Numbered from the stretch's first letter, positions 3,358 through 24,779 are shown. The stretch: 30,327 nucleotides of DNA from an uncultured Bacteroidota bacterium (GCA_903959115.1 CAJBVU010000206.1:1-30327), one strand, 5' to 3'. Notes: generated by a model not told the origin, from the sequence alone. Made by a program: numbers and translations.

Positions 3358-3394
3358 TAATTCCAGCATAAAATTTCAATTGAAGTATTCTACG

Positions 3395-8431: not shown

Positions 8432-9937
8432 ATGTTTAAGAAAATATTAATTGCCAATCGCGGAGAGATTGCCATTCGGGTGATGCGTACTTGCAAGGAG
8501 ATGGGCATTAAAACTGTTGCTATTTATAGTGAAGCCGATGTTCAGGCGTTGCATGTTCGTTATGCGGATGAGGCTTATTGCGTGGGCGGTGCGGCGAGTT
8601 CTGATAGTTATTTGAGGATGGATCGCATCATCGAATTGTGTAAGCAAACGGGCGCTGAGGCAGTGCATCCAGGGTATGGTTTTTTGAGTGAAAATGCGGG
8701 TTTTGCGCGGGCTTTGAAAGCCGAGGGGTTGGTGTTGATTGGCCCTAGTGCTGAATCTATGGAGGTGATGGGTAGCAAAATTGCTTCTAAACAGGCGGTT
8801 AAAGCGTTTGGGGTTCCGTTGGTTCCTGGCATTGATGAGGCAATTAAGAATGCGGAAGATGCTTTGCAGGTGGCCATTGAGGTGGGTTTTCCAGTGTTGG
8901 TTAAGGCGAGTGCAGGTGGCGGAGGAAAAGGGATGCGTGTGGTGGAAAGGAAAGAAGATTTTATATCGGCGTTGCAAATGGCTCAGAACGAGGCAAGAAA
9001 TGCGTTTGGCGATGATAGTGTTTTTATTGAGAAATACGTTGGTAGTCCTCGACATATAGAGATTCAGTTGATGGCTGATAATTTTGGCAATGCTTGTTAT
9101 TTGTTTGAGAGGGAATGTAGTATTCAGCGCAGGCATCAGAAATTGGTTGAGGAAGCGCCGAGTGCGGTGCTGACTCCTGAACTTCGCCGAGCCATGGGCG
9201 AGGCGGCAGTGAATGTTGCCAAAGCCTGTAACTACTCTGGCGCAGGTACGGTTGAGTTTCTATTGAGCGAGTCGATGGAATTCTATTTCCTTGAAATGAA
9301 TACGCGTTTGCAAGTGGAGCATCCCGTTACAGAGTTGATTACTGGGGTTGATTTGGTGAAAGAGCAAATTTTGGTCGCGGCCGGACAAAAACTGAGTTTT
9401 ACCCAAGACGAATTGAAAATTAACGGCCACGCCATCGAATTAAGAATTTGCGCAGAAGATCCCGCCAATCAGTTTTTACCCAACGTAGGAACGGTTGAAA
9501 CCTACAAAGTGCCTCAGGGTCCTGGGATCAGAGTGGATGATTGTATGGAAAGCGGTATGGAGATTCCTATTTACTACGATAATATGTTGGCGAAGCTCAT
9601 CGTTTGGGCACCTACGCGATTGGAGGCGATTGCAAAAATGCGAAGAGCGATCAGTGAATATGTGATTACTGGAATCGAGACGACATTGATGTTTGGAGAT
9701 TTTGTGATGCAGCACCCGGCTTTTATTGAGGGTAAATTCGATACCCACTTTATACAGCATTATTTCACCGGAACGGAATTGGATGCGGCAGAATTGGCAG
9801 TTGCGGAACAAGAGTTGTTGGCGATGGCGGCAGTGCAGTTTTTTCAGCAGGGTGGTAAATCCGATGCCATAGTTTCAGAGGCTGTTGGATCGAATCACGG
9901 ACATACAGATTGGTATTTGCAGCGTAAGGGTTATTAA
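8432..9937 (+). CDS. accC: Biotin carboxylase subunit of an acyl-CoA carboxylase
   Basis: MFKKILIANRGEIA, HPGYGFLSEN, KASAGGGGKGMR, ERECSIQRRHQK, EMNTRLQVEHPVTE and YYDNMLAKLI. No biotin-carrier (MKM) domain. Acetyl- versus propionyl-CoA specificity cannot be determined from sequence here. Confidence 0.93.
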   Translation: MFKKILIANRGEIAIRVMRTCKEMGIKTVAIYSEADVQALHVRYADEAYCVGGAASSDSYLRMDRIIELCKQTGAEAVHPGYGFLSENAGFARALKAEGLVLIGPSAESMEVMGSKIASKQAVKAFGVPLVPGIDEAIKNAEDALQVAIEVGFPVLVKASAGGGGKGMRVVERKEDFISALQMAQNEARNAFGDDSVFIEKYVGSPRHIEIQLMADNFGNACYLFERECSIQRRHQKLVEEAPSAVLTPELRRAMGEAAVNVAKACNYSGAGTVEFLLSESMEFYFLEMNTRLQVEHPVTELITGVDLVKEQILVAAGQKLSFTQDELKINGHAIELRICAEDPANQFLPNVGTVETYKVPQGPGIRVDDCMESGMEIPIYYDNMLAKLIVWAPTRLEAIAKMRRAISEYVITGIETTLMFGDFVMQHPAFIEGKFDTHFIQHYFTGTELDAAELAVAEQELLAMAAVQFFQQGGKSDAIVSEAVGSNHGHTDWYLQRKGY

Positions 9938-9944
9938 ATTGACG

Positions 9945-10901
9945 ATGCCAAAAATCTTGTTGATTGATGATTTTCACGAGTATTTGCATCAGTCGATGCA
10001 GGGAAAATTTGAGGTCATCGATTGTAGGGATTGTACCCCAACTGAGGTGGGTGGTCTGCTAAATTTGCATCAACCGGAAGGCCTATTTGTGAGGAGTAAG
10101 GTGTTTATAGACAAAGAATTAATGGTTGCCAGTAGTGGACTGAAGTGGATTGGTAGAGGCGGTGCTGGCATGGATAATATTGATGAGGTTTCGGCGCAAG
10201 AAATGGGCATCATATGTTTTAATGCGGGTGAGGCTAATTCGGATGCCGTTGGGGAGCATACATTGGCGATGTTGCTGGGTTTGTTGACCCGATTACCAAA
10301 AGCAAATTCGGAGGTCAAAGCTGGCGTTTGGGACCGTGAAGGCAACCGCGGGATGGAGTTAAAAGGCAAAACGGTTGGGATTGTTGGATATGGTAATACT
10401 GGTTCGGCGGTGGCGGAAAAACTCCGGGGTTTTGGTGTGGAAATTTTGGCCTATGATAAGTACAAAACGGGATTTGGTAACCCATGGGTTTCGGAGGTTT
10501 CAGAGTCAGAGTTGCTTTCAAAATCTGATGTAATATCACTTCATATTCCCCTGACTGTGGAAACCCAAAATTGGATCAATAAAAGTAGATTAGAGCGATG
10601 TAAAATGGGCATTTATTTGCTCAATTTATCGAGAGGAATGACGGTGGATTTGTTGGCGGTAGAAGAGGCTATCGAAAGCTTTAGAATTTTAGGTTTTGCG
10701 GCGGATGTTTTACCGATTGAGCCGCCTTGGAAGGATTTGGATGAAAATCGGAAGAGGGCATTTGAGCGGTTGATGGATTTAAACCATACAATTTTTTCGC
10801 CGCATGTGGGAGGATGGACGGTGGAGAGCTATCGTAAAATTTCTGTAATTTTATTCGATAAAATGTTGAAATTGTACGACATAGATAGTAACTTTTCATA
10901 A
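9945..10901 (+). CDS. D-isomer-specific 2-hydroxyacid dehydrogenase (SerA-like, no ACT domain)
   Basis: RGGAGMDNID, AVGEH, ELKGKTVGIVGYGNTG (NAD binding), SLHIPLT, LNLSRG (Arg), DVLPIEP (Glu) and SPHVGG (His). Start at ATG 9945, 7 nt after the accC stop. Confidence 0.9.
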   Translation: MPKILLIDDFHEYLHQSMQGKFEVIDCRDCTPTEVGGLLNLHQPEGLFVRSKVFIDKELMVASSGLKWIGRGGAGMDNIDEVSAQEMGIICFNAGEANSDAVGEHTLAMLLGLLTRLPKANSEVKAGVWDREGNRGMELKGKTVGIVGYGNTGSAVAEKLRGFGVEILAYDKYKTGFGNPWVSEVSESELLSKSDVISLHIPLTVETQNWINKSRLERCKMGIYLLNLSRGMTVDLLAVEEAIESFRILGFAADVLPIEPPWKDLDENRKRAFERLMDLNHTIFSPHVGGWTVESYRKISVILFDKMLKLYDIDSNFS

Positions 10902-10961: not shown

Positions 10962-10992
10962 TTGATAAATCCTTGCTTTTTGGGTAAACTTG
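10962..10992 (+). promoter_or_regulatory. Putative promoter of the TBDR / T9SS cargo / PorV operon (TTG-N20-TAAACTTG)
   Basis: TTG at 10962-10964, 20-nt spacer, then a one-mismatch -7 box at 10985-10992, in the intergenic gap before the operon. Confidence 0.45.
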
Positions 10993-11042
10993 CCATGTTA
11001 TAGTTAATCGTATAACGACCTAATAAATATAGAAAACGACCT

Positions 11043-14000
11043 ATGAAGAATATGATACGCAAGATTTTCACGCTGTGTATGGGCTTATTGGCCACTGGCT
11101 TGGTGACGGCGCAAACAAACTTTGCCGATTTTAAGATTACGGCGAAGGATGGCGAGAGTAAAAAGTTGAGTGGTGTGACCATTCGGATGATTTTGAACGA
11201 CATCGAAGTAGCATCGGACACAACGGATTCGGATGGTAATGCCGAATTTACCACATTGAATCCAGGAACCTACGATGTTTCGGCAACCAAAGAAGGGTTT
11301 CCTGATCAGCGATTGAATGGTATTTCATTGGGTCCAGGCTATAACAACACAGAGGAGGTCGTATTTGTGAAATCTGATGGAAAAATGACCGACGTAGTTA
11401 TCCGCGTGAAGGGCAAAAGAACCCCGGTGGATATGATGAAGAACGATGCGGTAATTGATCAAAAACAGATTTTGAATTCAGGTCGTCGTGGTACAAGCTT
11501 GTTGGTTGGTACCAACTCAGCCATAATGAGTACTCCACAGGGTATTTCTGTGCGTGGAACAAGGGCGGATGGTAACGGAACATTTATCGATGGTCAGCGT
11601 GTTATCGGTGGTGGTAGTTTGCCTACTTTAGGTACAGAACAGATCTCTGCCAATGTGGGTGGTATTCAAGCGATGTATGGTGACTTAACGGGTGGTGTAT
11701 TTAGCAGTACTTCTAAGAGTGCAACAGATAAAATTGTTACAGCGGTTGAAGCTCAGACCTCAACGGGTTTGGATGCATTTGGTCATAATTCGGTGGAAGG
11801 ATTTATTTCTGGCCCATTGATTGTGAAAGATGTGAAGGATGCTGAAACTGGAAAGAAGCGCCGAATGGTTAAGTTGGGTTATGTGTTAAATGGTAACGTG
11901 GGTTATTACAAAGATCCCAATCCAACCCGTACAGGTGTTTATGTAGTAAATGATCAAAAATTACAACAGCTAGAAAATAATCCTTTGGTATTTACCCCGA
12001 ATGGATTTGTTAGTACTGCATCCTATTTGCGCGAGTCGGACTTTGACCAATTGAAGGCAAGGCCGAATAGCCCATTATCAAATGGCAACTTTATAGGAAA
12101 ATTAGAGTGGCGACCTTCTCAGGGCGTAAGTCTTGTGGGTTATGCGAGTTATTTTTACCAGCAAAGTTTGGCTGCGAGTAACTCTGTAATGAACTTCAAG
12201 AATAATGGTAGAAGTGATAACCAGACGTTCCGTGGATATTTGTTGTTTACACAGAACTTCAAGACAAACAAAGAGAGCTCAATCAAGAACGCATATTACT
12301 CAATTCGTGCAGAATATCAGAATTCGTATTCTGAAAGTAGAGATGCGGTTCACATGGACAATATTTTCAACTATGGGTATATTGGTAAATTTAAATCCTA
12401 CCCTACAGCGGTTTTTGCATACTCAAACAATGATCCGCAGCAGAATCCTAATAGGGAGCCTAAGATTATGCGCGACCAGTTTGGGAATTATGTACAGTTG
12501 AGAAATTACTGGGAGCAAGTTGGAAATACGGATACATTGATGACCTATACTGCAGGGGATTTGAATCCGGTGAGAGCTAAATACACTCAGAGTATTTACG
12601 ACTATTACAATGAAAGAGGTTTTAACATCAACGGAATCAATACATTATTGGCAAGTCAAGGATTGGTGAACGGCATGAACCCCAATGCAGTGTATTCTCT
12701 GCACAATACACCAGGTGGTAACACTTCCGGTTGGAGTAAGTCTAGCGCAGAGCGTTATGGTTTGTTCGCGGTAGGCCAGATGAGTGTGAAAGGTAAAACT
12801 GTTGGAGGACGTGAAAGGACCCAGCATGATTTACAGGCAGGTTTTTATTATGAGCAACAAATTAACCGTGGTTACGGATTGGGTGCCAATGGTTTGTGGA
12901 TATTGATGCGTCAGTTGATGAACAAACACATCTCAGAATTGGATTTGTCTAATCCTATTTTGAGTTACGATGCTAATGGCCAGTTTACGGATACCGTTCG
13001 TTACAATCGTTTGATTAACTACGGCGATCAATCGCAGTTCGACCGTAACTTCAGGGATAAATTAATTCAAGACGGTGCTACAGATGTTTATGGTAACAAG
13101 ATTGATGAGCGCACATTTGTTGATGTTAACTCTTTTGCGCCTTCAGATTTCAAGTTAGAAATGTTCAATGCTGATGAATTGTTGAACAATGGTAATAGTT
13201 ATGTGAGTTACTTTGGATACGATTATTTAGGAAATCGTGTTGCGGGGAAGCCAAGTATCGAACAATTCTTAAACAACAAAACACAGCGCACGATTGGTGC
13301 TTTTCAGCCGGTCTATATTGCAGCTTGGTTGCAGGATCAATTTCAATTCAAAGATCTTGTTTTCCGTTTGGGCTTGCGTATGGAAAGATATGATGCCAAC
13401 CAATTGGTGTTGAAAGATCCTTACAGCTTGTATCCAATCAAAACCAAAGGTGAAGTGAAGCAAATCAATGGGTTGGATATTTTGCATCCCAATAACATCG
13501 GTGACGACTTCAAAGTATATGTAAACGATATAGACGCTCCAACGAAGATTATTGGTTACCGAAATGGCGATAAATGGTTTAATGCTGATGGTTCTGAATT
13601 ACGCAGTGCGGAATTCTTGGCCAACCAAACTAGCAACGGTCGTATCGCGCCTTATTTGGTAAACCCCAACAAACAGGAGTTAACCAAAGACGCCTTAGAA
13701 GACTTTTTACCTGCTGTGAATTTGTTGCCACGTATTTGGTTCTCTTTCCCATTGGAGCCAGGAAGGAAGTCGTTTTATGTTAGCTATGATGTGTTGGCAC
13801 AACGTCCAAACTCAGGTGCATCGTTCTTGTCGATCGATGAATTATATTTCTTAAAAAACCGTCAAGGTTCTACTATTTCTAACGGTAGCTTGAAGCCACG
13901 TATCAAAACAGATTACGAAGTGGGATACAAGCAAATCATGGGTAAGAAAAAGGATCGAGGTTTGGAAATTGCGGCATCATACAGTGAAAACAGAAAAGAT

Positions 14001-14828
14001 TTTGGTTTGTATCAGATCAGCCAAGGATATCCTGTAACCTATACTACTTACCGTAACATTGATTTCTCTACTGTCACTGGATTCCGTGGAACATACGTGA
14101 TGAATGACATTGGTGGTAAGGGTAACATGCCAGGGCCTTTCTCTTTGGTTGCAAGTTACATGATGCAGTTTGCGGATGGAACGGGATCAAACATCAACTC
14201 TCAGGCGGCTTTGATTGCCAGTAACCAACCTAACCTTAGAAACGTAATTCCATTGGGTGAATTGGATATTCGTCATAACGTAAAGTTCAGTGCAACTTGG
14301 GCTTGGGGCGGTGGTATCAACCCAATTACCAAGAAGAACATGTACACCGGACCTCGTTGGAAAGGCAAAGAGATCTTCAAATATGCAAGTTTTAACATCA
14401 TCTCTAACTCGTACAGTGGTACTCCGTACACGCCAACGATTTTCCCAGTTCAGATTGGTGCGGTAGATCGTTCTAGGATCAAGGGTGTTCCATTTGGTGC
14501 GAGATTGCCATGGAATCAAACGTTTGATATCAACATTACCAAGGGATTGCGCTTCAATAGAGAGGATAAAGTTCAACCTTTGCTTATGAATGTATTCTTT
14601 ATCATTACGAACGTGTTAAATGCATACAACGTTGTTTCGGTTTATCCTTACACTGGTCAGCCGTTGGATGATGGATTTATCAATTCACCTCAAGGTCAAT
14701 TGTTGGCCAAAAACCAGATTGATGCACAGAGTTATGTTGATCTATATAAAATTTTGTTAAACTCCCAGACGGGTAACTTGGGTGCACCAAGAACTATCAA
14801 AGTGGGTTTGCGTATTAATTTCAATTAA
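11043..14828 (+). CDS. TonB-dependent-receptor-like outer-membrane protein with N-terminal carboxypeptidase-regulatory-like domain and very large loops
   Basis: Signal peptide; Ig/transthyretin-like N-domain (TTDSDGNAEFTTLNPGTYDV); TonB-box-like MTDVVIRV; plug motifs ISVRGTRADG.TFIDG and GGIQAMYGDLTGGV; barrel strands (AWLQDQFQFKDLVFRLGLRMERYD, YEVGYKQ); C-terminal PRTIKVGLRINFN outer-membrane signature. Confidence 0.85.
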   Translation: MKNMIRKIFTLCMGLLATGLVTAQTNFADFKITAKDGESKKLSGVTIRMILNDIEVASDTTDSDGNAEFTTLNPGTYDVSATKEGFPDQRLNGISLGPGYNNTEEVVFVKSDGKMTDVVIRVKGKRTPVDMMKNDAVIDQKQILNSGRRGTSLLVGTNSAIMSTPQGISVRGTRADGNGTFIDGQRVIGGGSLPTLGTEQISANVGGIQAMYGDLTGGVFSSTSKSATDKIVTAVEAQTSTGLDAFGHNSVEGFISGPLIVKDVKDAETGKKRRMVKLGYVLNGNVGYYKDPNPTRTGVYVVNDQKLQQLENNPLVFTPNGFVSTASYLRESDFDQLKARPNSPLSNGNFIGKLEWRPSQGVSLVGYASYFYQQSLAASNSVMNFKNNGRSDNQTFRGYLLFTQNFKTNKESSIKNAYYSIRAEYQNSYSESRDAVHMDNIFNYGYIGKFKSYPTAVFAYSNNDPQQNPNREPKIMRDQFGNYVQLRNYWEQVGNTDTLMTYTAGDLNPVRAKYTQSIYDYYNERGFNINGINTLLASQGLVNGMNPNAVYSLHNTPGGNTSGWSKSSAERYGLFAVGQMSVKGKTVGGRERTQHDLQAGFYYEQQINRGYGLGANGLWILMRQLMNKHISELDLSNPILSYDANGQFTDTVRYNRLINYGDQSQFDRNFRDKLIQDGATDVYGNKIDERTFVDVNSFAPSDFKLEMFNADELLNNGNSYVSYFGYDYLGNRVAGKPSIEQFLNNKTQRTIGAFQPVYIAAWLQDQFQFKDLVFRLGLRMERYDANQLVLKDPYSLYPIKTKGEVKQINGLDILHPNNIGDDFKVYVNDIDAPTKIIGYRNGDKWFNADGSELRSAEFLANQTSNGRIAPYLVNPNKQELTKDALEDFLPAVNLLPRIWFSFPLEPGRKSFYVSYDVLAQRPNSGASFLSIDELYFLKNRQGSTISNGSLKPRIKTDYEVGYKQIMGKKKDRGLEIAASYSENRKDFGLYQISQGYPVTYTTYRNIDFSTVTGFRGTYVMNDIGGKGNMPGPFSLVASYMMQFADGTGSNINSQAALIASNQPNLRNVIPLGELDIRHNVKFSATWAWGGGINPITKKNMYTGPRWKGKEIFKYASFNIISNSYSGTPYTPTIFPVQIGAVDRSRIKGVPFGARLPWNQTFDINITKGLRFNREDKVQPLLMNVFFIITNVLNAYNVVSVYPYTGQPLDDGFINSPQGQLLAKNQIDAQSYVDLYKILLNSQTGNLGAPRTIKVGLRINFN

Positions 14829-14847
14829 TCTTTAAAGAATTTACAGT

Positions 14848-17800
14848 ATGAAACGATTAGGTTTAATTTTGTTCAGTGCGATGTTGGCTCAAATGTCGAT
14901 CGCACGTCCCATTCTTAACTTGAATGGCAGGTCCAATAGCCCAAGGGTTGATCGCAGGGCGGGTCAGTTTGCCAATACTTGCGAACCCGCTTCTCAAAGT
15001 GTGGATTTGGATGTAAACAACGTACGTACCAAATTGTTAAATGGTGGCGATATGTGGTGGGATTTGAACAACGCAAAATATGAAATTCCGAAGGTAACAG
15101 ATCCAAACTCAGTGCGTAAACATTCATTGTTCGCGGGTGCCATTTGGATTGGCGGTCGTGATAATGGTGGAAGTTTGAAATTGGCCGCGATGACTTATCG
15201 TCAGAAAGGTTCAGATTTCTGGCCAGGTCCATTGGATACTACCACTGCTGCCACTGATCCAGTGCGTTGTAAGACTTACGATAAAATGTGGAAGGTGACT
15301 CGCGATGAGTTGGAAGAGTTTGAAAATAGCAAATATTTGACCCAAAGTGCGGGTATTCGTGATTGGCCAGCTGGAAGACAACGTGCGGTATTGTATGGTA
15401 ACGAGGCGAATTATTTGGCGCCTTACAAGGAAATTACCCCAGACGGAGTTTACGATCCTTTTGTTGGAGAGCACCCCGTGTTAGATGATCGCAGACCTTC
15501 TATTGAAAATGGAGTTGACAAGCAGCCTGATATGTTTATTTGGTGGGTTTACAATGATAAGGGTAACATTCACTCTGAAACACAGGGTCAAGCAATTGGT
15601 GTAGAAGTTCAGACAACCGCGTTTGCATTTAGTACGAACGACGAGGTGAATAATATGACATTTTACGGTTCTAAGATTATTAACCGTGGATTTACAACAT
15701 TGAACAATTGTTACATGGGTCAGTGGGTAGATGCCGATTTGGGTAACTACGCAGATGACTATGTTGGTTGTGATGTGGGACGCGGATTGGGATTCTGTTA
15801 CAATGGTGACGATGATGATGAAGGTGTATTGGGATATGGTTTGAATCCTCCTACCATTGGTGTTGATTACTTTGAAGGTCCAACAGATTCTGCAGGTAAC
15901 CAAATGGGGTTGAGTCACTATATGTATTACAACAACGACTCAGATCCGGTACGTGGAAATCCAGGTGAAGCGATTGAGTATTATAATTTGTTGCAAGGAA
16001 AATGGTTGGGCGGTCAGAATGTAACGTATGGCGGAACAGGATTTGGTGGTTCAAAGCCAGCCAAGTATATGTTCCCTGGTGATACTGATCCTGCCTATCC
16101 AACAGATCCATGGACTGAGAAAATTTCAGGAAATAAGCCTGGTGATAGACGTTTTATTCAATCAACGGGTCCATTTACTTTGCGTCCTGGTCAAACCCAA
16201 CGTATTACAGTGGGTGTTGTTTGGGCTCGTACTACTAGCGGTGGTGCAAGTGGTTCTTTGAATTTGTTGAAATTGGCATCAGACAAAGCACAAACGTTGT
16301 TTAACAACAACTTTAAGATTTTGGATGGACCAAATGCTCCAGATATTGAAATTCAAGAGCTTGAGCAGGAATTGGTAATGAAGTTTTTGAATACCAATTC
16401 TGGTAAAATCGAAAACTACGTTGAGAAATATAGAGATGCTAGCAACAAGCTTCGCACTTATAAGTTTGAAGGATATTTGGTTTATCAGTTAAAAGACGGA
16501 ACTGTTAGTACCAGCGATTTGGATAACGTTGATAAGGCTCGTTTGTTGTTTCAGTGTGATTTGAAAAACAACCGCGGTATGATTGTAAACAAAGTATACG
16601 ATCCAAAATTGGCCGCTTTGTTACCTGTGATTAAGGTTGAAGGTGCGGATGCAGGTGTTCAACATACTTGGAGTATCAAAAACGATCTTTTTGCGACAAG
16701 TGCAAATACCCAATTGGTTGATTTTAAGCCAGTGTATTATTTAGTGATGTCCTATGCCATCTTGGCTGATGATTCTTTGCAGATTGATCCAAATCAATTC
16801 CTAGCGGGTCGTCGTAATATCAAAACATATAAAGTGGTTCCTCACAAAACGGAGCCTGAGAATTTTGGTACTGAATTGACTTCAGGTTACGGTAGTGGTC
16901 CAGTATTAACTCGTTTGGCGGGTCGTGGAAACGGCGGTAACGTTTTGGAATTCACTCCAGAGACAATGAACGATATCTTGGCAAATAATATTTCTAGCAA
17001 GCCTACCTATGTTGGTGGATTTGGTCCTGTTAAGATTAAAGTGGTTGATCCGTTGAAGGTGCCGAATGCCAAATTCGAATTTGTATTAAAGGAGAATAAA
17101 GCAAGTTTGGCTTCTGGATTGAAAGATTCAATGACCAAGAATACTGGCTGGTTCATGGTGAAAAAGGGAGCTGATGGCGTTTCCAATGATACGATATTCT
17201 CCGATACAACAATTAGATCGAAGTTTGAATCAGTGCAAGGTAAGCGTAGTGTAAACAATGCCACCAAAGAGACTTTGGCTGATTGGGGATTGAGTGTAGA
17301 AGTTGAACAGGTTTATAATCCAGGCGAAAATGCTCAGGCTGATCCATCCAATGGTGTATTGAGTTGGAGTGTGGAGTGGGAAGACAATGGAAAGCAATGG
17401 TTAACTGCAGTTGCCGACAATGATGGTACTGCTGCGGGAAATTTCCCTTGGCAGAACTGGATTCGTGCGGGTCAGGCAGGTCGTGGTGCTACGTTTGATC
17501 CAATTGCACATGACTTCTTTAACCAAGACGGCACCCCTTGCGATCCAGGTCAGGCTTTTGAGAGAATTTGGAACGGTAGAATTGCGCCTTATGGGTTAAC
17601 AGGTCGTGAAAAGTTGACTGCAGCTGGTAAAAATACTTATGGTTTTGCGTGGTGGGGTAATACAGTTGGTTTGCAAAATCCAATGGCGGAATTGGCAAGT
17701 ATAGAATTGGTAATCACTAAGGATAAGAGTTTGTGGACGCGTTGCCCGGTATTTGAGATGGCGGACGACGAGATGAAGGCTTCTACCGAAGGTCAGATGT

Positions 17801-18732
17801 CCAAGTTTAACATGCGTTGGGGTACTTCAAAAGATAAAGACGGAAACGATATTTCTGGTTCTCAAGGTTTGGGTTGGTTCCCTGGCTATGCGGTGAATAT
17901 GGAAACGGGCGAACGATTGGTTATTGCATTCTCTGAGGATAGTTATTTGGCTGGTGAAAACGGCCGTGATATGATGTGGAATCCTACAGATAAGGTTATC
18001 AACGACAATGGCAGTTATCCTGCAATGGGTGGTAAACACTTCATTTATATCTTCGGTACGGGTATGTCGGCTATTTCGCGTAACGTAAAAGGTGAGAGAT
18101 ATTTAGGTGATGCTGAAGCCAATTTCCAACGTTTCAAAACAGCAATGTTGCCCACGGCTGTGGGAGGTTCTGTTTCGAGCACGGAGAAAATGAGATTGTT
18201 ATCTCAGGCAATGTGGGTGATTCCAACATATATGGCCGCTGGTTTCAAGATGGAAAATGGCAATGTTCCTCCAACAAATGTGAAGATCAAGATTAACATT
18301 CGCAAGGCATATACTACATACAATGGTGGTAATGCAATCAACAACGATCGTCCGATGTATGAATTTGATGCTGCAAGTATCGCACCTAAGGTGAGCAATG
18401 AAATCGGGAAGAAGAATTTGGACTTGGTTAATGTTGTTCCGAATCCTTATCGCGGATATAGTTCCTATGAAAACTCTCCAATTGATTCTCGTGTTAAAAT
18501 TACCAATTTGCCTCCAGATTGTACAATTACAATTTATGATATGGCGGGTAATTTGGTTCGCAGAGTTAACAAAGCGGATGTGAATACTTACTATGAGTGG
18601 GATTTGAAAAACGGAAGTAATGTGCCTATTGCCAGTGGTTTATACTTGATCCATGTTAAGACTAAGGATTTGGGTGAAAAGATAATTCGTTGGTACGGTA
18701 TTATGCATGCCATTGATTTGGACAGTTATTAA
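14848..18732 (+). CDS. 1294-aa secreted protein of unknown function with a T9SS type-A-like C-terminal domain
   Basis: SPI-type signal peptide with no lipobox. N-domain LDVNNVRTKLLNGGDMWWD..HSLFAGAIWIGG..DFWPGP; GDRRFIQSTGPFTL.PG; Fn3-like YKFEGYLVY; CTD VVPNPY..ITNLPPDCTITIYDMAGNLV..WDLKN..IASGLYLIHV. Confidence 0.8.
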   Translation: MKRLGLILFSAMLAQMSIARPILNLNGRSNSPRVDRRAGQFANTCEPASQSVDLDVNNVRTKLLNGGDMWWDLNNAKYEIPKVTDPNSVRKHSLFAGAIWIGGRDNGGSLKLAAMTYRQKGSDFWPGPLDTTTAATDPVRCKTYDKMWKVTRDELEEFENSKYLTQSAGIRDWPAGRQRAVLYGNEANYLAPYKEITPDGVYDPFVGEHPVLDDRRPSIENGVDKQPDMFIWWVYNDKGNIHSETQGQAIGVEVQTTAFAFSTNDEVNNMTFYGSKIINRGFTTLNNCYMGQWVDADLGNYADDYVGCDVGRGLGFCYNGDDDDEGVLGYGLNPPTIGVDYFEGPTDSAGNQMGLSHYMYYNNDSDPVRGNPGEAIEYYNLLQGKWLGGQNVTYGGTGFGGSKPAKYMFPGDTDPAYPTDPWTEKISGNKPGDRRFIQSTGPFTLRPGQTQRITVGVVWARTTSGGASGSLNLLKLASDKAQTLFNNNFKILDGPNAPDIEIQELEQELVMKFLNTNSGKIENYVEKYRDASNKLRTYKFEGYLVYQLKDGTVSTSDLDNVDKARLLFQCDLKNNRGMIVNKVYDPKLAALLPVIKVEGADAGVQHTWSIKNDLFATSANTQLVDFKPVYYLVMSYAILADDSLQIDPNQFLAGRRNIKTYKVVPHKTEPENFGTELTSGYGSGPVLTRLAGRGNGGNVLEFTPETMNDILANNISSKPTYVGGFGPVKIKVVDPLKVPNAKFEFVLKENKASLASGLKDSMTKNTGWFMVKKGADGVSNDTIFSDTTIRSKFESVQGKRSVNNATKETLADWGLSVEVEQVYNPGENAQADPSNGVLSWSVEWEDNGKQWLTAVADNDGTAAGNFPWQNWIRAGQAGRGATFDPIAHDFFNQDGTPCDPGQAFERIWNGRIAPYGLTGREKLTAAGKNTYGFAWWGNTVGLQNPMAELASIELVITKDKSLWTRCPVFEMADDEMKASTEGQMSKFNMRWGTSKDKDGNDISGSQGLGWFPGYAVNMETGERLVIAFSEDSYLAGENGRDMMWNPTDKVINDNGSYPAMGGKHFIYIFGTGMSAISRNVKGERYLGDAEANFQRFKTAMLPTAVGGSVSSTEKMRLLSQAMWVIPTYMAAGFKMENGNVPPTNVKIKINIRKAYTTYNGGNAINNDRPMYEFDAASIAPKVSNEIGKKNLDLVNVVPNPYRGYSSYENSPIDSRVKITNLPPDCTITIYDMAGNLVRRVNKADVNTYYEWDLKNGSNVPIASGLYLIHVKTKDLGEKIIRWYGIMHAIDLDSY

Positions 18733-18740
18733 AAAATAGA

Positions 18741-19856
18741 ATGATGAATCGCAAACAAAAGAATATACTTTGGGCCAGTTTGATGGCTGTTGGATTTGTA
18801 GGAACTGCTTTTGGTGGTAATCCTGAACGTCAGGGACAGGCAGGTGCTGCTCAGTTGACCATCAATGGTTGGGCGAGATCCAGTGGTATGGGTTGGGCGA
18901 ATGGCGGTAAGGTATCGGGTGCAGAAGCCATGTACATGAACGTAGGTGGTTTGGACCGTTTTAAGAATAACACCGAATTGGTATTTGCTCGTACAGAATG
19001 GTTGATGGGTTCAGGGATTGCCATTAATAGTGTTGCTTTGGCTCAGAAAATGGGTGAAGATGGCGAAGGAGGTACTTTTGGTATATCTGTAATGCAGTAT
19101 AGCATTAAACCCATTGATATCACTACAGAGGATAACCCTTATGGCGGTATTGGTACTTTTAGAGTTAATATGTCGAATATTGGCTTAGCATATTCTAAGA
19201 GCTTCAGTAACAACATCTCTGCAGGTGTTATGGCAAAGATCGTTTCGGAGGGGATTCCTGATGCAAGCGCTTCTGGTGTTGCTTTGGATGCAGGTGTTCA
19301 ATACGTAACCACATTCCGTCCTACCAAGGGTGGTATGAAGAAGGATGATTTCAAGTTTGGTATTTCGATGAAGAACATCGGACCCGACATGAATCATACG
19401 GGTGATGGATTGAGTTACAAGGCGATTTTGGATAATGGTACGTTTACCAAAACTGTTCAGGTGAAGGTGGATCAGATCAAATTGCCAGCCTTGTTGAACA
19501 TTGCTGCTTCTTATGATATCCGTTTGGATAAGAACGCAAATCAATACGATAATAAGTTAACTGTAGGGTTCGGATTTACGAATTATGCGTATACTGCGAA
19601 CCAGTTGACGTTGGCTTGTGAGTATTCATATAAGGAATTCTTGACATTGCGCGGTGGATTTGTTTATCAGCAGGGGATTTTTGACAGCGAAGTACGTCCT
19701 TCCGCCTTTACGGGTCCACAAGCAGGTATTAGTTATGATTTTGCGGTAGGTGAAGACGGCAATCAAGTTAGTTTAGATTACTCATACAGGGCAACAAATC
19801 CTTTTAATGGTGTGCATTCATTTGGTTTGCGCATTGGCTTAGGAACTGCCGAATAA
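18741..19856 (+). CDS. PorV/PorQ-family (FadL-like) outer-membrane beta-barrel, probable PorV paralog
   Basis: Signal peptide. N-terminal hatch-like segment AGAAQLTINGWARSSGMG..AEAMYMNVGGL resembles PorV (FL.I.P.AR..GMG....NPA). Amphipathic strands follow (GLAYSK, LDAGVQY, LTLRGGF, LDYSY, HSFGLRI). Confidence 0.8.
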   Translation: MMNRKQKNILWASLMAVGFVGTAFGGNPERQGQAGAAQLTINGWARSSGMGWANGGKVSGAEAMYMNVGGLDRFKNNTELVFARTEWLMGSGIAINSVALAQKMGEDGEGGTFGISVMQYSIKPIDITTEDNPYGGIGTFRVNMSNIGLAYSKSFSNNISAGVMAKIVSEGIPDASASGVALDAGVQYVTTFRPTKGGMKKDDFKFGISMKNIGPDMNHTGDGLSYKAILDNGTFTKTVQVKVDQIKLPALLNIAASYDIRLDKNANQYDNKLTVGFGFTNYAYTANQLTLACEYSYKEFLTLRGGFVYQQGIFDSEVRPSAFTGPQAGISYDFAVGEDGNQVSLDYSYRATNPFNGVHSFGLRIGLGTAE

Positions 19857-19870
19857 TACAAGCATTTTTA

Positions 19871-19878
19871 TATATTTG
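19871..19878 (+). promoter_or_regulatory. -7 box (TATATTTG) for greA
   Basis: Exact TAnnTTTG, located upstream of the hairpin described next. Confidence 0.6.
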
Positions 19879-19883
19879 TAAAG

Positions 19884-19918
19884 TGTGCATCAGTGGCTAA
19901 CGCTGGTGCACATTTTTT
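19884..19918 (+). terminator. Intrinsic terminator (end of the TBDR operon and/or greA leader attenuator)
   Basis: 12-bp stem TGTGCATCAGTG / CGCTGGTGCACA (two G-U pairs), 5-nt loop GCTAA, then TTTTTT. Confidence 0.8.
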
Positions 19919-20415: not shown

Positions 20416-20814
20416 ATGGCAACGTTGTTCTCGCGTATTGTGGCTGGTGAAATCCCTTGTCATCGTATTTGCGAAGACGAACATCATTTGGCATTTTTGG
20501 ATATCATGCCCTTGGTGATGGGACATGTTTTGGTAATCCCTAAGCGCGAGGTAGATTATATCTTTGATTTGTCTGGTTCCGAGTTAGGTGCTCTGTGGCA
20601 GTTTGCCCAGGGTGTTGCAAAGGCGGTAGAAAAGGCGGTTCCGTGTAAACGGGTTGGTGTTGCGGTGATTGGATTAGAAGTGCCCCACGCACATATTCAT
20701 TTGGTCCCTCTTCAAACCGTGGGCGATATCAATTTTACCAAAGAAAAGTTGCATCCCAGTGAGTCGTCGTTGGCTGAAATTGCCGCATTGATTCGTGCCA
20801 ATTTGCAAGGGTAA
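20416..20814 (+). CDS. HIT-family nucleotide hydrolase
   Basis: TLFSRIVAGEIP, AFLDIMP..GHVLVIPK and histidine triad VPHAHIHLVP. Confidence 0.95.
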   Translation: MATLFSRIVAGEIPCHRICEDEHHLAFLDIMPLVMGHVLVIPKREVDYIFDLSGSELGALWQFAQGVAKAVEKAVPCKRVGVAVIGLEVPHAHIHLVPLQTVGDINFTKEKLHPSESSLAEIAALIRANLQG

Positions 20815-20831
20815 AATCGGATTGATTTACT

Positions 20832-20839
20832 TAGGTTTG
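20832..20839 (+). promoter_or_regulatory. -7 box (TAGGTTTG) for lgt-holB
   Basis: Exact consensus, only 6 nt before the lgt ATG. Confidence 0.65.
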
Positions 20840-20845
20840 TAAAGA

Positions 20846-21628
20846 ATGAAACCTGAATTATTTCATATTGCTGGATTAACGATTTATGGATACGGTTTCT
20901 GTATTTTGGTAGGCGTTGTTGCTGCATTTTTTCATTTGTATTTGAATCGGGTAAGATTGGGGATGGATGTAGATAGCATTAGCAATGTGATATTGATTTG
21001 TTTTGTGGGTGTGTTTGTGGGAGGGAAGGTTTTTTACTTTTTGGAAGACCCTGCGGGACATTGGTCGCGGATGGATCAGTTCTTTGGGGATCTAGGCAAT
21101 GGATTTGTATTTTATGGTTCTTTTCTGGTCACCCTGGCGATGCTTTGGGCTTGGATGCGCAAGATTGGCTGGAATTTTTGGGATAAGATGGATGATATTG
21201 GCATCGCTGGTGCGTTTGTACATGGCTTTGGTAAGTTGGGCTGCTTCTTGGCGGGTTGCTGTCATGGCGTGGTTTGTGTGAATCCCAAATATGGCATAAT
21301 TTTTAATGATGTGAATTCGCACGCCGAGCCCTTGGGCGAGGCGCTATACCCCGTACAATTATGGGATTCGGGAATCGTGTTTTTTAGCATCGCAATGATG
21401 TTGTGGATGCAAAAGCGAGGGAAGACATTTGGTGGACAGTTATTTTTCTTTTATGCCTTAATTTATGGTGTAGGCAGGTTCTTTACGGAAGGGTATCGCG
21501 GGGATATCTCCAGAGGTTTTGTTTTCAACGGACTGTTATCGCATAGCCAATTTATTGCCATTTTAGTGGTGACCTTCTCGGGCATTGGATATTGGTTTTT
21601 GCGAAGGAGGCAGTTGCGTAAAGTATGA
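20846..21628 (+). CDS. lgt: Prolipoprotein diacylglyceryl transferase (Lgt family)
   Basis: Multi-TM protein with IYGYG, GFVFYG, G(K)LGCFLAGCCHG, YPVQLWD and RFFTEGYRGD motifs. Confidence 0.88.
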   Translation: MKPELFHIAGLTIYGYGFCILVGVVAAFFHLYLNRVRLGMDVDSISNVILICFVGVFVGGKVFYFLEDPAGHWSRMDQFFGDLGNGFVFYGSFLVTLAMLWAWMRKIGWNFWDKMDDIGIAGAFVHGFGKLGCFLAGCCHGVVCVNPKYGIIFNDVNSHAEPLGEALYPVQLWDSGIVFFSIAMMLWMQKRGKTFGGQLFFFYALIYGVGRFFTEGYRGDISRGFVFNGLLSHSQFIAILVVTFSGIGYWFLRRRQLRKV

Positions 21629-22809: not shown

Positions 22810-23346
22810 ATGACACATCAACAGGAGCCAAAAGAACATCAATTGTTGCGACAGTGTATCGCGGGAGACCGCAAGGCACAGCAAGGGTTGTACGATCTTT
22901 TTGCCCCCACTGTGTATGCCATTTGCTTGCGATACATGGGTAATTCAGACGATGCCAAAGATATGTTACAAGACACCATGGTAAAGTTTTATCAAAAAGC
23001 GGGAGAGTTCAGATTCCAAGGATCCTTGGAGGGCTGGGTGAAACGCATCGGTGTAAATGCATGTTTGGATCAGTTGAAGAGAAATAAAGCCAAATTTACT
23101 ACGGATATTGAAAATGCTTTTGGATTAAGCGGCGATGTAAATGCTTCTCAACCACTAGAAACTAAGGATTTGATGCGATTGCTCGGCACACTCCCTGATG
23201 GGTATCGCACTGTTTTTAACTTATACGCCATTGAGGGATTCTCTCATGGTGAGATTGCCACACTGTTGAATATTTCTGAGAATACAAGTAAGTCACAACT
23301 ATTTAAAGCCCGCAAATGGTTGCAAGCAAAACTCGATAGGAATTGA
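22810..23346 (+). CDS. ECF (sigma-70 group 4) RNA polymerase sigma factor
   Basis: 178 aa with regions 2 and 4 only: DRKAQQGLY..YAICLRY..AKDMLQD, GWVKRIGVN..LD and LPDGYRTVFNLYAIEGFSHGEIA.LL.ISENTSKSQLFKAR. Confidence 0.95.
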   Translation: MTHQQEPKEHQLLRQCIAGDRKAQQGLYDLFAPTVYAICLRYMGNSDDAKDMLQDTMVKFYQKAGEFRFQGSLEGWVKRIGVNACLDQLKRNKAKFTTDIENAFGLSGDVNASQPLETKDLMRLLGTLPDGYRTVFNLYAIEGFSHGEIATLLNISENTSKSQLFKARKWLQAKLDRN

Positions 23347-24653
23347 TGGATGATTCATTGAAACATATCGATGAGCTATTTCGTTCCCATTTGGGTTCGG
23401 CGGGTGTGACGCCTCCTACAGGGGTGTTTGAGCAGTGTGTTGAGCAATTGCATGCTTCAGGAACGGAAGGACAAGGATTGAATCAGGGTGCTATTCAGCA
23501 AAGTGTTGAATCAGGACTGGAAAATGCCACGGCAAGTGCAGGAAAAACAATATTTGGTATTTCGATGAAGGCCAGCGTTGCAATACTTGGCTCAGTGGTT
23601 GCTGCCGTCTTTGTGGTATCGGCTATCTTGAACAGCAACGGATCTGTCAACCATTTGAAAGATGTGAATGCTGGGATACGGTCAGAGGTCGACAAGAATT
23701 TGGATCAGACAGCCGCGGGAATTGATAATAATTCGGATAAGGGTGCTGGTTTGTCGGCGAAGACCAACGCTGAAATTGGTAATAGTTCTTCTGATGTAAA
23801 TGCAAGGACGACTTCTCTGGATAAAATAGATTACGTGGCCACTTATGGGGGGTCGATTCCAGTGCTTCGTAAGAATTATGTTGGAGGGAAAAATAATGTT
23901 GGAGTGGAAAATTCCGGGGGCGGGAATGGTGGATCGGGCATAGAAAATTCATCGAATGTGCCCCGGGAAAAATCATCGAGTGAAATGTTAGTTAAAGTGC
24001 CGACAGACAATTCAAATCAATTGAGCCGACCTACAAAAGTGGTAGCTGGGAATATAAACCCATGTCAAAAGTATGCAAATCAGTGGAAGCCTGTTATCGC
24101 CGATATTGTTGGTGGGATTGTTTCATTGGGTATTGAGGGTAAATATGAAAAAATGCGGGTTGATTGGGCTGATGGTGAGCGTTCAGAAGTGTTAACTGAC
24201 CAAGTGGGTGTTGAGCGAGTTTCGCATCAATATTGGGTAGCAAATAACAGAACGTTTAATGTAAAGATGTTGAACGAGCGCAGGGTTTTCGATGAGAAAG
24301 GTATGTGGATTGTTTGCAGGGACAGTCAGAGAGTTGCGGTTAGTATCGCGCCCGTGGGTGATGCTACAGATATTTTTGTCCCTGATATTTTTACACCCAA
24401 TGGGGATGGATTTAATGAAGAATTTTACATTAGGATGGCCCAGCCTCAAATGTTCGATATTTGTGTCTTTGATGTGAACAATCGTTTGATATTCAGATCA
24501 GAGAACTACGATGCAAGATGGAAGGGTATTTGTGGCGCAAGTGTTTGTCCAGAAGGTGTTTATAGGTTGGTTGTTTCGTATAAGTATAGTGGTGATAAAT
24601 CGTTAAAGTATGCAAGAAAATCCGTGAAGTTAATTTATAAAGCAAACCAATAA
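23346..24653 (+). CDS. Putative anti-sigma factor: cytoplasmic N-domain, single TM, Ser/Asn/Gly-rich linker, PKD-like domain and T9SS type-B CTD
   Basis: TGATG overlap with the sigma gene. N-terminus IDELFRSHL....TPPTGVFE resembles Bacteroidota anti-sigma N-domains. Hydrophobic helix at 23577-23630; no cleavable N-terminal signal peptide. C-terminus FVPDIFTPNGDGFNEEF..FD.NNRLIF..RWKG..PEGVY is CHU_C-like. Confidence 0.72.
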   Translation: MDDSLKHIDELFRSHLGSAGVTPPTGVFEQCVEQLHASGTEGQGLNQGAIQQSVESGLENATASAGKTIFGISMKASVAILGSVVAAVFVVSAILNSNGSVNHLKDVNAGIRSEVDKNLDQTAAGIDNNSDKGAGLSAKTNAEIGNSSSDVNARTTSLDKIDYVATYGGSIPVLRKNYVGGKNNVGVENSGGGNGGSGIENSSNVPREKSSSEMLVKVPTDNSNQLSRPTKVVAGNINPCQKYANQWKPVIADIVGGIVSLGIEGKYEKMRVDWADGERSEVLTDQVGVERVSHQYWVANNRTFNVKMLNERRVFDEKGMWIVCRDSQRVAVSIAPVGDATDIFVPDIFTPNGDGFNEEFYIRMAQPQMFDICVFDVNNRLIFRSENYDARWKGICGASVCPEGVYRLVVSYKYSGDKSLKYARKSVKLIYKANQ

Positions 24654-24719
24654 TTTTAAAAATCGAATATGAATTTTACTCATAATAGTACACGGCGCCC
24701 AAATAATTCGGGCAACTCC

Positions 24720-24750
24720 TTGGGAAATTGGACCAAATTTTCTATTTTTG
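24720..24750 (+). promoter_or_regulatory. Housekeeping promoter of the giant PKD gene (TTG-N20-TATTTTTG)
   Basis: Exact -7 box at 24743-24750, with TTG at 24720-24722 and a 20-nt spacer. It lies inside the ORF track's N-terminal extension, which implies a later start. Confidence 0.6.
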
Positions 24751-24779
24751 AGCGATTACACAAAGCAAACTCACCTAAA

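Follow-up and report, generated by a model that had tools for sequence, protein, structure and literature searches.

What can a TonB-dependent transporter be doing when it is encoded with no SusD partner, directly upstream of a protein bearing a type IX secretion system (T9SS) tail and of a barrel of the PorV/PorQ family? This question is raised by three adjacent genes, here termed A, B and C, in a stretch of 30,327 nucleotides from an uncultured bacterium of the phylum Bacteroidota (GCA_903959115.1, contig CAJBVU010000206.1:1-30327), which as a whole we call the window. An original prediction, made from the DNA alone, had seen in them an outer-membrane machine in which a private PorV paralog presents a single T9SS cargo on the transporter as a lid or receptor. 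With moderate confidence we favor a related reading, namely a nutrient-capture unit in which the T9SS exports B, C retains B by its tail, the core of B binds a substrate (probably a glycan) and A imports it. The three genes are the following:

11043..14828, plus strand: gene A, open reading frame of 1261 aa, divergent TonB-dependent transporter (predicted), no SusD partner
14848..18732, plus strand: gene B, open reading frame of 1294 aa, secreted protein with a type-A T9SS tail (predicted), body without a curated family
18741..19856, plus strand: gene C, open reading frame of 371 aa, PorV/PorQ-family barrel, third paralog distinct from PorV and PorQ

The coordinates bear out the predicted co-directional arrangement, with all three genes on the plus strand and gaps of 19 nt between A and B and 8 nt between B and C. 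The leaders of all three products, judged by eye, run from basic through hydrophobic to small residues and have no lipobox cysteine, in agreement with the claim that each carries a signal peptide of the signal-peptidase-I type.

A third PorV-family barrel and the tail of B

Gene C passes the model for the PorV/PorQ family (NF033709, 108.6 bits against a cut-off of 90) and falls far below the equivalog cut-offs for PorV (NF033710, 46.6 against 250), PorQ (NF033711, 33.7 against 220) and ‘PorV2’ (NF052325, 36.1 against 325). In profile searches of the PDB it recovers PorV of Flavobacterium johnsoniae (6h3i_F, 1e-22) and otherwise only TodX, weakly. On contig C188 of the source genome a canonical PorV (427 bits) immediately follows PorU, and contig C4 has a PorQ (252 bits against 220). 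C thus represents a third paralog, and B is something other than PorU; this upholds the view of C as a private paralog rather than the only porV of the genome. The PorZ gene of the same genome, 13 kb from PorQ, is cut by the contig end (G000:C4:51-1127) and covers model positions 1-353 only.

Of the 58 PorV-family proteins in a maximum-likelihood tree, 23 are C orthologs; these form one clade (support 100/100), in which the representatives of the window’s class group together as a sub-clade (100/100). Clades of their own are formed by canonical PorV (100/96) and by the PorQ group (100/99). An identity of C as PorV, PorQ or PorV2 is therefore ruled out by the equivalog scores and, for PorV and PorQ, also by these separate clades. 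The split of the C clade by class implies that the paralog is older than the divergence of these classes.

The counterpart of this barrel would be the C-terminal tail of B:

18421..18729, plus strand: B, type-A T9SS C-terminal domain, aa ~1192-1294, found with TIGR04183, closest to the PorZ tail, predicted to bind C

The tail scores marginally with TIGR04183 (23.5 bits against 23) and below the Pfam cut-off with PF18962 (18.8 against 27). It also matches the tail region of the PorZ model (1.6e-8), has the PorZ tail (5m11) as its sole PDB profile match and is conserved across all the B orthologs that were compared. When C (aa 26-371) was paired with the tail (aa 1185-1294) in a complex prediction, each of the three runs gave 0.90, as against 0.00 for the best control; among 78 solved complexes 51 attain this mark, and among 108 mismatched pairs 2 do so. 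At the level of a model this supports the binding of the B tail by C, and with it the earlier expectation that the C-terminal domain would sit on the PorV paralog. There is precedent for such an arrangement in Porphyromonas gingivalis, where PorQ anchors PorZ and PorV anchors PorU, and both PorU and PorZ keep their tails (PMC5562754).

A divergent and oversized TonB-dependent transporter

Searched alone against Pfam, gene A matches CarboxypepD_reg only, with Plug missed at E <= 0.1, and single-sequence PDB searches with A, B and C gave nothing useful. We accordingly characterized it through a profile of the family, built from A and 22 homologs from related triplets, on which most of the following regions rest:

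11130..11357, plus strand: A, CarboxypepD_reg domain, aa 30-105 (PF13620, 33.6 bits against a cut-off of 32.3)
11388..11408, plus strand: A, TonB-box-like motif, aa 116-122, recognized by eye, family consensus L-x-E-V-V-I
11415..11762, plus strand: A, plug domain (approximate), aa 125-240; alignment of profile positions ~110-300 with the CirA, PirA and PfeA plugs
11763..14825, plus strand: A, oversized beta-barrel region (approximate); match to the PhuR barrel at profile positions 758-875

Against solved structures the profile recovers XusA (9gbc, 2e-24), CirA, PirA and PfeA, with the plugs of these four aligned at E from 2e-24 to 3e-12, as well as part of the PhuR barrel. Among the 23 aligned family members (A included) CarboxypepD_reg is present in all, Pfam Plug in 20, TonB_dep_Rec_b-barrel (PF00593) in seven and OMP_b-brl_4 in four. 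The window’s own copy misses Pfam Plug when searched by itself, so that this feature is established at the level of the family only. Taken together, the profile matches, the Plug and barrel counts and the TonB-box-like motif indicate that A, judged by sequence, is a divergent TonB-dependent transporter of unusually large size (1261 aa), as the earlier description of it as a TonB-dependent receptor-like barrel had it. Equally in line with that description, no SusD-like gene occurs in the unit; the single SusD_RagB (PF07980) match of the genome lies elsewhere, on contig C90.

One genome of another class (G128) has a second full-length A ortholog (G128:C1:4531448-4534768, 1233 bits to the A profile) with no PorV-family match nearby and, among the matches listed, no B match. 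This transporter may have lost its partners or may have lacked them from the start.

The core of B and its family

Outside the tail, the roughly 1150 residues of B have no sequence match in Pfam, NCBIfam or the PDB. In AlphaFold2 modelling, for which aa 36-1200 were folded from an alignment of 55 sequences (predicted local distance difference test (pLDDT) 89.4, predicted template-modelling score (pTM) 0.76), and in a second model, it resolves into the following predicted regions:

14980..16320, plus strand: B, galactose-mutarotase-like beta-supersandwich, aa ~45-491, AlphaFold2 model, the most conserved part
16330..16851, plus strand: B, FN3-like domain with an insertion, aa ~495-668, from a second model with pLDDT 90.3
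16852..18420, plus strand: B, ~520 aa with no match to a solved structure, aa ~670-1190, variable between classes

When aligned to known structures with VIA-align, the N-terminal domain is closest to 9ju0 (Z 19.1) and the glucoamylase 1lf6 N-domain (Z 18.4), followed by the N-domains of GH94, GH65 and GH116 enzymes. Over these top-ranked enzyme N-domains Z runs from 19.1 to 15, with 230-270 residues aligned across model residues 10-456. The domain has an invariant Asp/acidic cluster in the alignment columns of aa 295-324, and it is chiefly over aa 40-640 plus the tail that B orthologs of other classes align. In the second model, residues 1-174 are matched by FN3 domains at Z 8-10. The region of aa ~670-1190 finds no solved fold at Z >= 8, and its ESM Atlas matches are family members only; as single domains in long models are often missed, this is no proof of a new fold. 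Likewise, a Foldseek search of the PDB with the whole B model returned only weak partial matches (template-modelling score 0.15-0.22), and searches of the AFDB clusters and ESM Atlas with B yielded only uncharacterised relatives. The claim that the unit has no recognisable catalytic motif stands at the level of sequence, but the model of B displays an N-terminal domain of the carbohydrate-enzyme type, and this fold suggests glycan binding by the B core.

The B family is large. It has more than 6000 matches in a collection clustered at 90% identity, all named ‘hypothetical’ or ‘T9SS type A sorting’, and comprises 7535 clusters at 50% identity with E <= 0.001 or 2463 with E <= 1e-30. Its distribution is patchy: 132 of 301 sampled genomes of the phylum match B at E <= 1e-10, some of the weakest of these matches being probably to the tail only, and whole families have none with this query.

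Conservation of the triplet and its paralogous versions

We examined 22 loci, of which 20 were picked by homology to B only, from families of the window’s class and from other classes, and two were metagenome contigs. The order and orientation of A, B and C are kept in all 22, across classes; in two of them divergence hides the A-like gene from tblastn, and an open reading frame of 950-1000 aa occupies the same position. The genes are thus conserved together, as had been anticipated. Beyond these loci, one cluster of orthologs carries Ignavibacteriota names, and a neighboring cluster in the ESM Atlas is labelled Fidelibacterota.

The triplet architecture is not confined to the orthologs of A, B and C. 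In G036 and G128, both of them complete genomes from other classes, the PorV-family genes number 16 and 14, and from these we sampled 20 with the C orthologs left out. Fourteen of the 20 lie directly downstream of a tailed protein (615-1319 aa) that itself follows a TonB-dependent transporter, and two more lie directly after such a transporter, with the tailed protein a few kb upstream. The transporters of these paralogous triplets are related to A at both their N- and C-terminal ends, and about half of the tailed proteins in the triplets of the two genomes share the body of B. This accords with the statement in the original prediction that similar triplets recur in genomes of the Fibrobacterota-Chlorobiota-Bacteroidota (FCB) group, and shows them to be multi-copy in some, such as G036 and G128. 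SusD_RagB matches number six in G036, none in G128, 0-3 in three other carriers and one in the source genome; as the six of G036 coexist with triplets, any ‘replacement’ of SusD is not strict.

Several contexts tie this type of module to nutrient uptake. Upstream of paralogous triplets we found LacI-family regulators at two loci and an IclR regulator at one, and their frequent neighbors include SurA-like peptidyl-prolyl isomerases and further tailed proteins. In the alginate locus of Rhodothermus marinus, lyases of PL6, PL17 and PL39 adjoin a TonB-dependent receptor, ‘hypA’ (T9SS type-A) and ‘hypB’ (PorV/PorQ) (PMC9530828, Fig. 2), and for hmu-type heme loci of some Porphyromonas species a figure legend lists ‘T9SS’ and ‘porV/Q’ genes (PMC12106395). 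In both papers the gene types of the triplet are printed in figure legends without comment (PMC9530828; PMC12106395). These contexts of related triplets do not, in themselves, give the substrate of the window’s own single-copy ortholog group.

In the paralogous triplets of G036 and G128, a fourth co-directional open reading frame of ~400-500 aa often follows the PorV-like gene (loci L138, L139, L143, L148, L151, L152, L153, L155 and L156; ~11000-12500 in each). Five of these were scanned: two contain a TIG domain, one NHL repeats and one an amidase domain, and one has no family. In the Rhodothermus locus, too, hypB is followed by a ‘hypC’ of 1398 nt (PMC9530828); the window’s own unit has no fourth gene.

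Transcription of the unit

The predicted bounding signals of the unit fare differently:

10962..10990, plus strand: promoter candidate, weak, upstream of A, 9/12 match to the sigma-70 consensus
19880..19918, plus strand: intrinsic-terminator-like hairpin with U tract, directly 3' of C

The terminator is real: its hairpin, with the U tract at 19880-19916, has 16 pairs and a folding energy of -23.5 kcal/mol (z = -6.9), and none of 200 shuffled sequences folds equally well, although a scanner for consensus terminators did not pick it up. The promoter is an unproven candidate, as the region has 20 sigma-70-type matches against 24 expected from shuffled sequence, i.e. no excess. Bacteroidota promoters in any case differ from the sigma-70 consensus.

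Four freshwater metatranscriptome runs contain contigs that are 95-100% identical to the unit and cover all three genes, and in three of the four the flanks at 9417-10667 and 20676-21500 have little or no coverage. This suggests that A, B and C are transcribed in situ.

Proposed mechanism and its alternatives

We posit that B would cross the inner membrane via Sec and then the outer membrane via the genome’s T9SS, by means of its type-A tail. The barrel C would capture this tail and keep B on the cell surface, comparable to PorQ-PorZ and PorV-PorU, with neither a lipid anchor nor a link to anionic lipopolysaccharide (A-LPS). There, the supersandwich and FN3 core of B would bind the substrate, most likely a glycan, and pass it to the TonB-dependent transporter A for import, such that B and C together would do the job of the SusD-type lipoprotein in SusCD pairs. 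Both the substrate and the TonB dependence of A are here inferred.

A number of points weigh against this proposal. In the window’s class the unit is single-copy and lies among housekeeping genes (SerA-like upstream, GreA and HIT downstream); a scan of the window’s flanks revealed no regulator, hydrolase or inner-membrane transporter near it, and such a setting is unlike that of a typical utilisation locus. As PorV-tail complexes have already been solved, the score of C with the B tail may in part reflect memory, and the prediction does not discriminate which PorV paralog is the partner. The retention of the B tail, rather than its cleavage by PorU, is drawn by analogy from PorQ-PorZ and PorV-PorU, and the physical contact between A and B is likewise inferred. 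The supersandwich is also common to proteins that do not handle sugars, e.g. the periplasmic domain of YidC, which makes glycan binding by B only a lead. At the level of transcripts, the metatranscriptome runs were selected using the A-B-C region as the query, and their contigs are short, with none spanning the A-B or B-C junction, so that a single transcript of the three genes is a putative one.

If A and B do not touch, B and C could simply be a surface-display pair, with B an enzyme or adhesin that, while held on C, acts on a polymer or binds it, A an importer of products, and nothing but co-regulation joining them. It is true that the contact between B and C is the only one with support from a model, and that catalytic domains (GH174 fucanases, polysaccharide lyases and mutarotases) can have the N-terminal fold of B or adjoin it. 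The invariant acidic cluster of aa 295-324 could, moreover, be catalytic or metal-binding, and extra tailed proteins lie near some paralogous triplets. Nonetheless, we regard a display pair as unlikely: across classes A, B and C are strictly adjacent and separated by a few bases, a closer packing than mere co-regulation usually brings, the paralogous triplets use a related sub-family of transporters (similar at the N- and C-termini) rather than just any TonB-dependent transporter, and B has no sequence match to any known catalytic family. The housekeeping setting could alternatively point to an accessory machine of the envelope or T9SS, e.g. for outer-membrane or surface-layer assembly. This would fit the single copy in the source genome, the SerA-like gene kept upstream even in other classes and GreA-HIT kept downstream within the class, the resemblance of the B tail to that of PorZ, a T9SS component, and the position of the unit in two related contigs, where BamA, two Skp homologs and MurI precede it by a few genes. 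However, the window itself has neither BamA nor Skp, and the genome has its own PorU, PorV, PorQ and PorZ. Further, the lack of a B match in about half of the sampled genomes, including whole families, argues against an essential role, and the paralogous triplets are multi-copy and situated by sugar-type regulators and, in print, alginate lyases (PMC9530828). An accessory machine of this kind is therefore quite improbable.

Two further alternatives concern export and sorting. The original prediction had itself raised the option that A is a partner in the export or assembly of the cargo. B would then come to, or fold at, the surface by way of the large barrel, and C would act as a chaperone; in favor of this option are the unusual size of A (1261 aa) and the failure of its own sequence to match the Pfam Plug and barrel models. 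Against it, the orthologs keep the plug, the barrel and an importer-type TonB-box-like motif, and B has a T9SS tail in a genome that encodes T9SS sorting parts. No TonB-dependent transporter, moreover, is known to export proteins, and we consider this option very improbable. Still further from the evidence is a second porU-porV-like pair of sortase and shuttle, which B and C mimic in size and order (~1300 aa, then ~370 aa, with a gap of a few bases). The PorU sortase model (NF033707, with a C25-type peptidase core) does not match B, whose NCBIfam matches are in the tail only, and the true PorU lies upstream of canonical PorV on C188; the models of B comprise the supersandwich and FN3 with no protease among the fold matches, and aa ~670-1190 has no solved match. 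This candidate is thus refuted at the level of both sequence and fold, and we give it hardly any chance. Among these explanations the nutrient-capture unit remains the one that we favor. Of the first interpretation as a whole, the private paralog, the linkage of the three genes, the tail modeled on C and the recurrence of the triplet have stood, and the novelty of a tailed protein held by a barrel has not.

Source genome and neighboring genes

The source assembly is assigned to Bacteroidota and comprises 2.2 Mb in 357 contigs, with 91.6% completeness. Contigs nearly identical to the window are labelled as freshwater Flavobacteriales or Bacteroidota metagenome-assembled genomes (MAGs), and the best 80 matches in a scan of a genome collection are to uncultured MAGs only. 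One 4.8-kb contig that is 96% identical to gene B (CAZZKP010000144.1) is filed as ‘uncultured Bifidobacterium sp.’, which is almost certainly a binning or labelling error of a public MAG.

Upstream, the unit is flanked by AccC and a SerA-like 2-hydroxyacid dehydrogenase, and downstream by GreA, a HIT protein, Lgt and the delta' subunit of DNA polymerase III. The SerA-like gene, a short dehydrogenase at 9885-10901 directly upstream of A, has phosphoglycerate dehydrogenase as its best NCBIfam match, below the cut-off. It also precedes the triplet in other classes of the phylum (loci L018, L019, L020 and L022), and the linkage reflects either a synteny of unusual age or an unexplained connection in function.

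Positions 22810-24653 encode an extracytoplasmic function (ECF) sigma factor (Sigma70_r2/r4) whose stop overlaps the start of the gene for a 436-aa protein; the C-terminus of this partner matches the type-B T9SS signal CHU_C (PF13585, 45 bits). Directly after this pair, at 24669-30161, lies a gene whose 1830-aa product combines PKD domains with a CHU_C tail of type B (64 bits), and no PorP/SprF-like gene is seen in the last 166 bases of the window that follow it. We considered A as a signaling transporter and rejected this, as it has no STN domain and the sigma factor pair lies 3 kb downstream, beyond four housekeeping genes. At the other end of the window, a 706-aa protein (3380-5500) shows a weak match to M49 peptidases (40 bits) and no NCBIfam family.

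Significance and relation to known systems

If the nutrient-capture reading is true, two specialities of Bacteroidota, TonB-dependent nutrient capture and type IX secretion, would be joined in one machine that has gone unanalysed. The reading would also provide a function for many unexplained PorV/PorQ paralogs and widen the anchoring principle of PorQ-PorZ. The scale is considerable: the family of B runs to ~7500 clusters at 50% identity with no curated model, and some genomes have more than 12 triplets as against 0-6 SusD matches. As annotation pipelines call the parts ‘hypothetical’, predictors of utilisation loci that are keyed on SusC/SusD pairs would miss these loci. Cultured bacteria offer testable systems, e.g. 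the alginate locus of Rhodothermus marinus.

More tentatively, and in the knowledge that it may well prove wrong, we suggest that the triplet could represent a second ancient design for TonB-dependent uptake in the FCB group. The transporter partner, exposed at the surface and binding the substrate, would be delivered by the T9SS and held by a retained tail in a private PorV-family barrel, rather than being a SusD lipoprotein. PorV-family barrels would then be mainly anchors of transporter partners, with PorV and PorQ as special cases, and the triplet would serve in place of SusCD as the main glycan-uptake module of genomes of the Ignavibacteria and Rhodothermia type.

In open-access papers and preprints on PorV-like proteins, PorV paralogs, PorV2, Ignavibacteria, proteomes and conserved operons the module is not described; what is new within that literature is the combination in one operon, the abundance and the modular spread of the triplet. 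The novelty initially claimed for the triplet holds to this extent, but PorQ-PorZ and PorV-PorU are earlier examples of a barrel of the PorV family with one tailed protein permanently attached (PMC5562754). 

A likeness is found in the BAM complex of Bacteroides, where BamG, a 14-stranded FadL/PorV-like barrel, stably binds the surface-exposed BamH via extracellular loops (PMC12578637). However, BamG sits on BamA and belongs to barrel assembly, with neither a T9SS tail nor a transporter, and C has no detected sequence relation to it, its PDB profile matches being PorV and weakly TodX only. There is a parallel with PorQ-PorZ and PorV-PorU of the T9SS attachment complex in P. gingivalis, in which a PorV-family barrel holds one T9SS-exported protein, apparently by its retained C-terminal domain (PMC5562754), much as C passes the PorV/PorQ model, the B tail is nearest to that of PorZ and a complex of C with the tail is predicted. 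In contrast to these pairs, C is neither PorV nor PorQ by equivalog models and tree, and beyond its tail B shows no relationship to PorZ or PorU. Further, B and C share an operon with a TonB-dependent transporter and have many paralogous copies per genome in some classes, and A, B and C are not part of the secretion machinery.

PorP/SprF-like barrels are encoded beside type-B tailed cargoes such as SprB and are thought to anchor them. There, too, a dedicated small barrel gene adjoins that of ‘its’ T9SS cargo, but the barrel is of the PorP/SprF family and the tail of type B, as opposed to PorV/PorQ and type A, and the unit includes no transporter.

Finally, the SusC/SusD (RagA/RagB) systems, in which Bacteroidota utilisation loci pair a transporter with a lid, share with the triplet a transporter made up of CarboxypepD_reg, plug and barrel, encoded directly upstream of the gene for a partner that in the triplet, too, would be surface-exposed. 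The triplet, like them, is multi-copy and modular in some genomes and found by sugar-type regulators and inside an alginate locus (PMC9530828). Their difference lies in the partner: B is not a SusD-fold lipoprotein, having no lipobox and no PF07980 match, and is instead a 1294-aa protein, presumably delivered by the T9SS, with a predicted core of supersandwich and FN3, for which a third gene, C, would supply the anchor in the form of a barrel.

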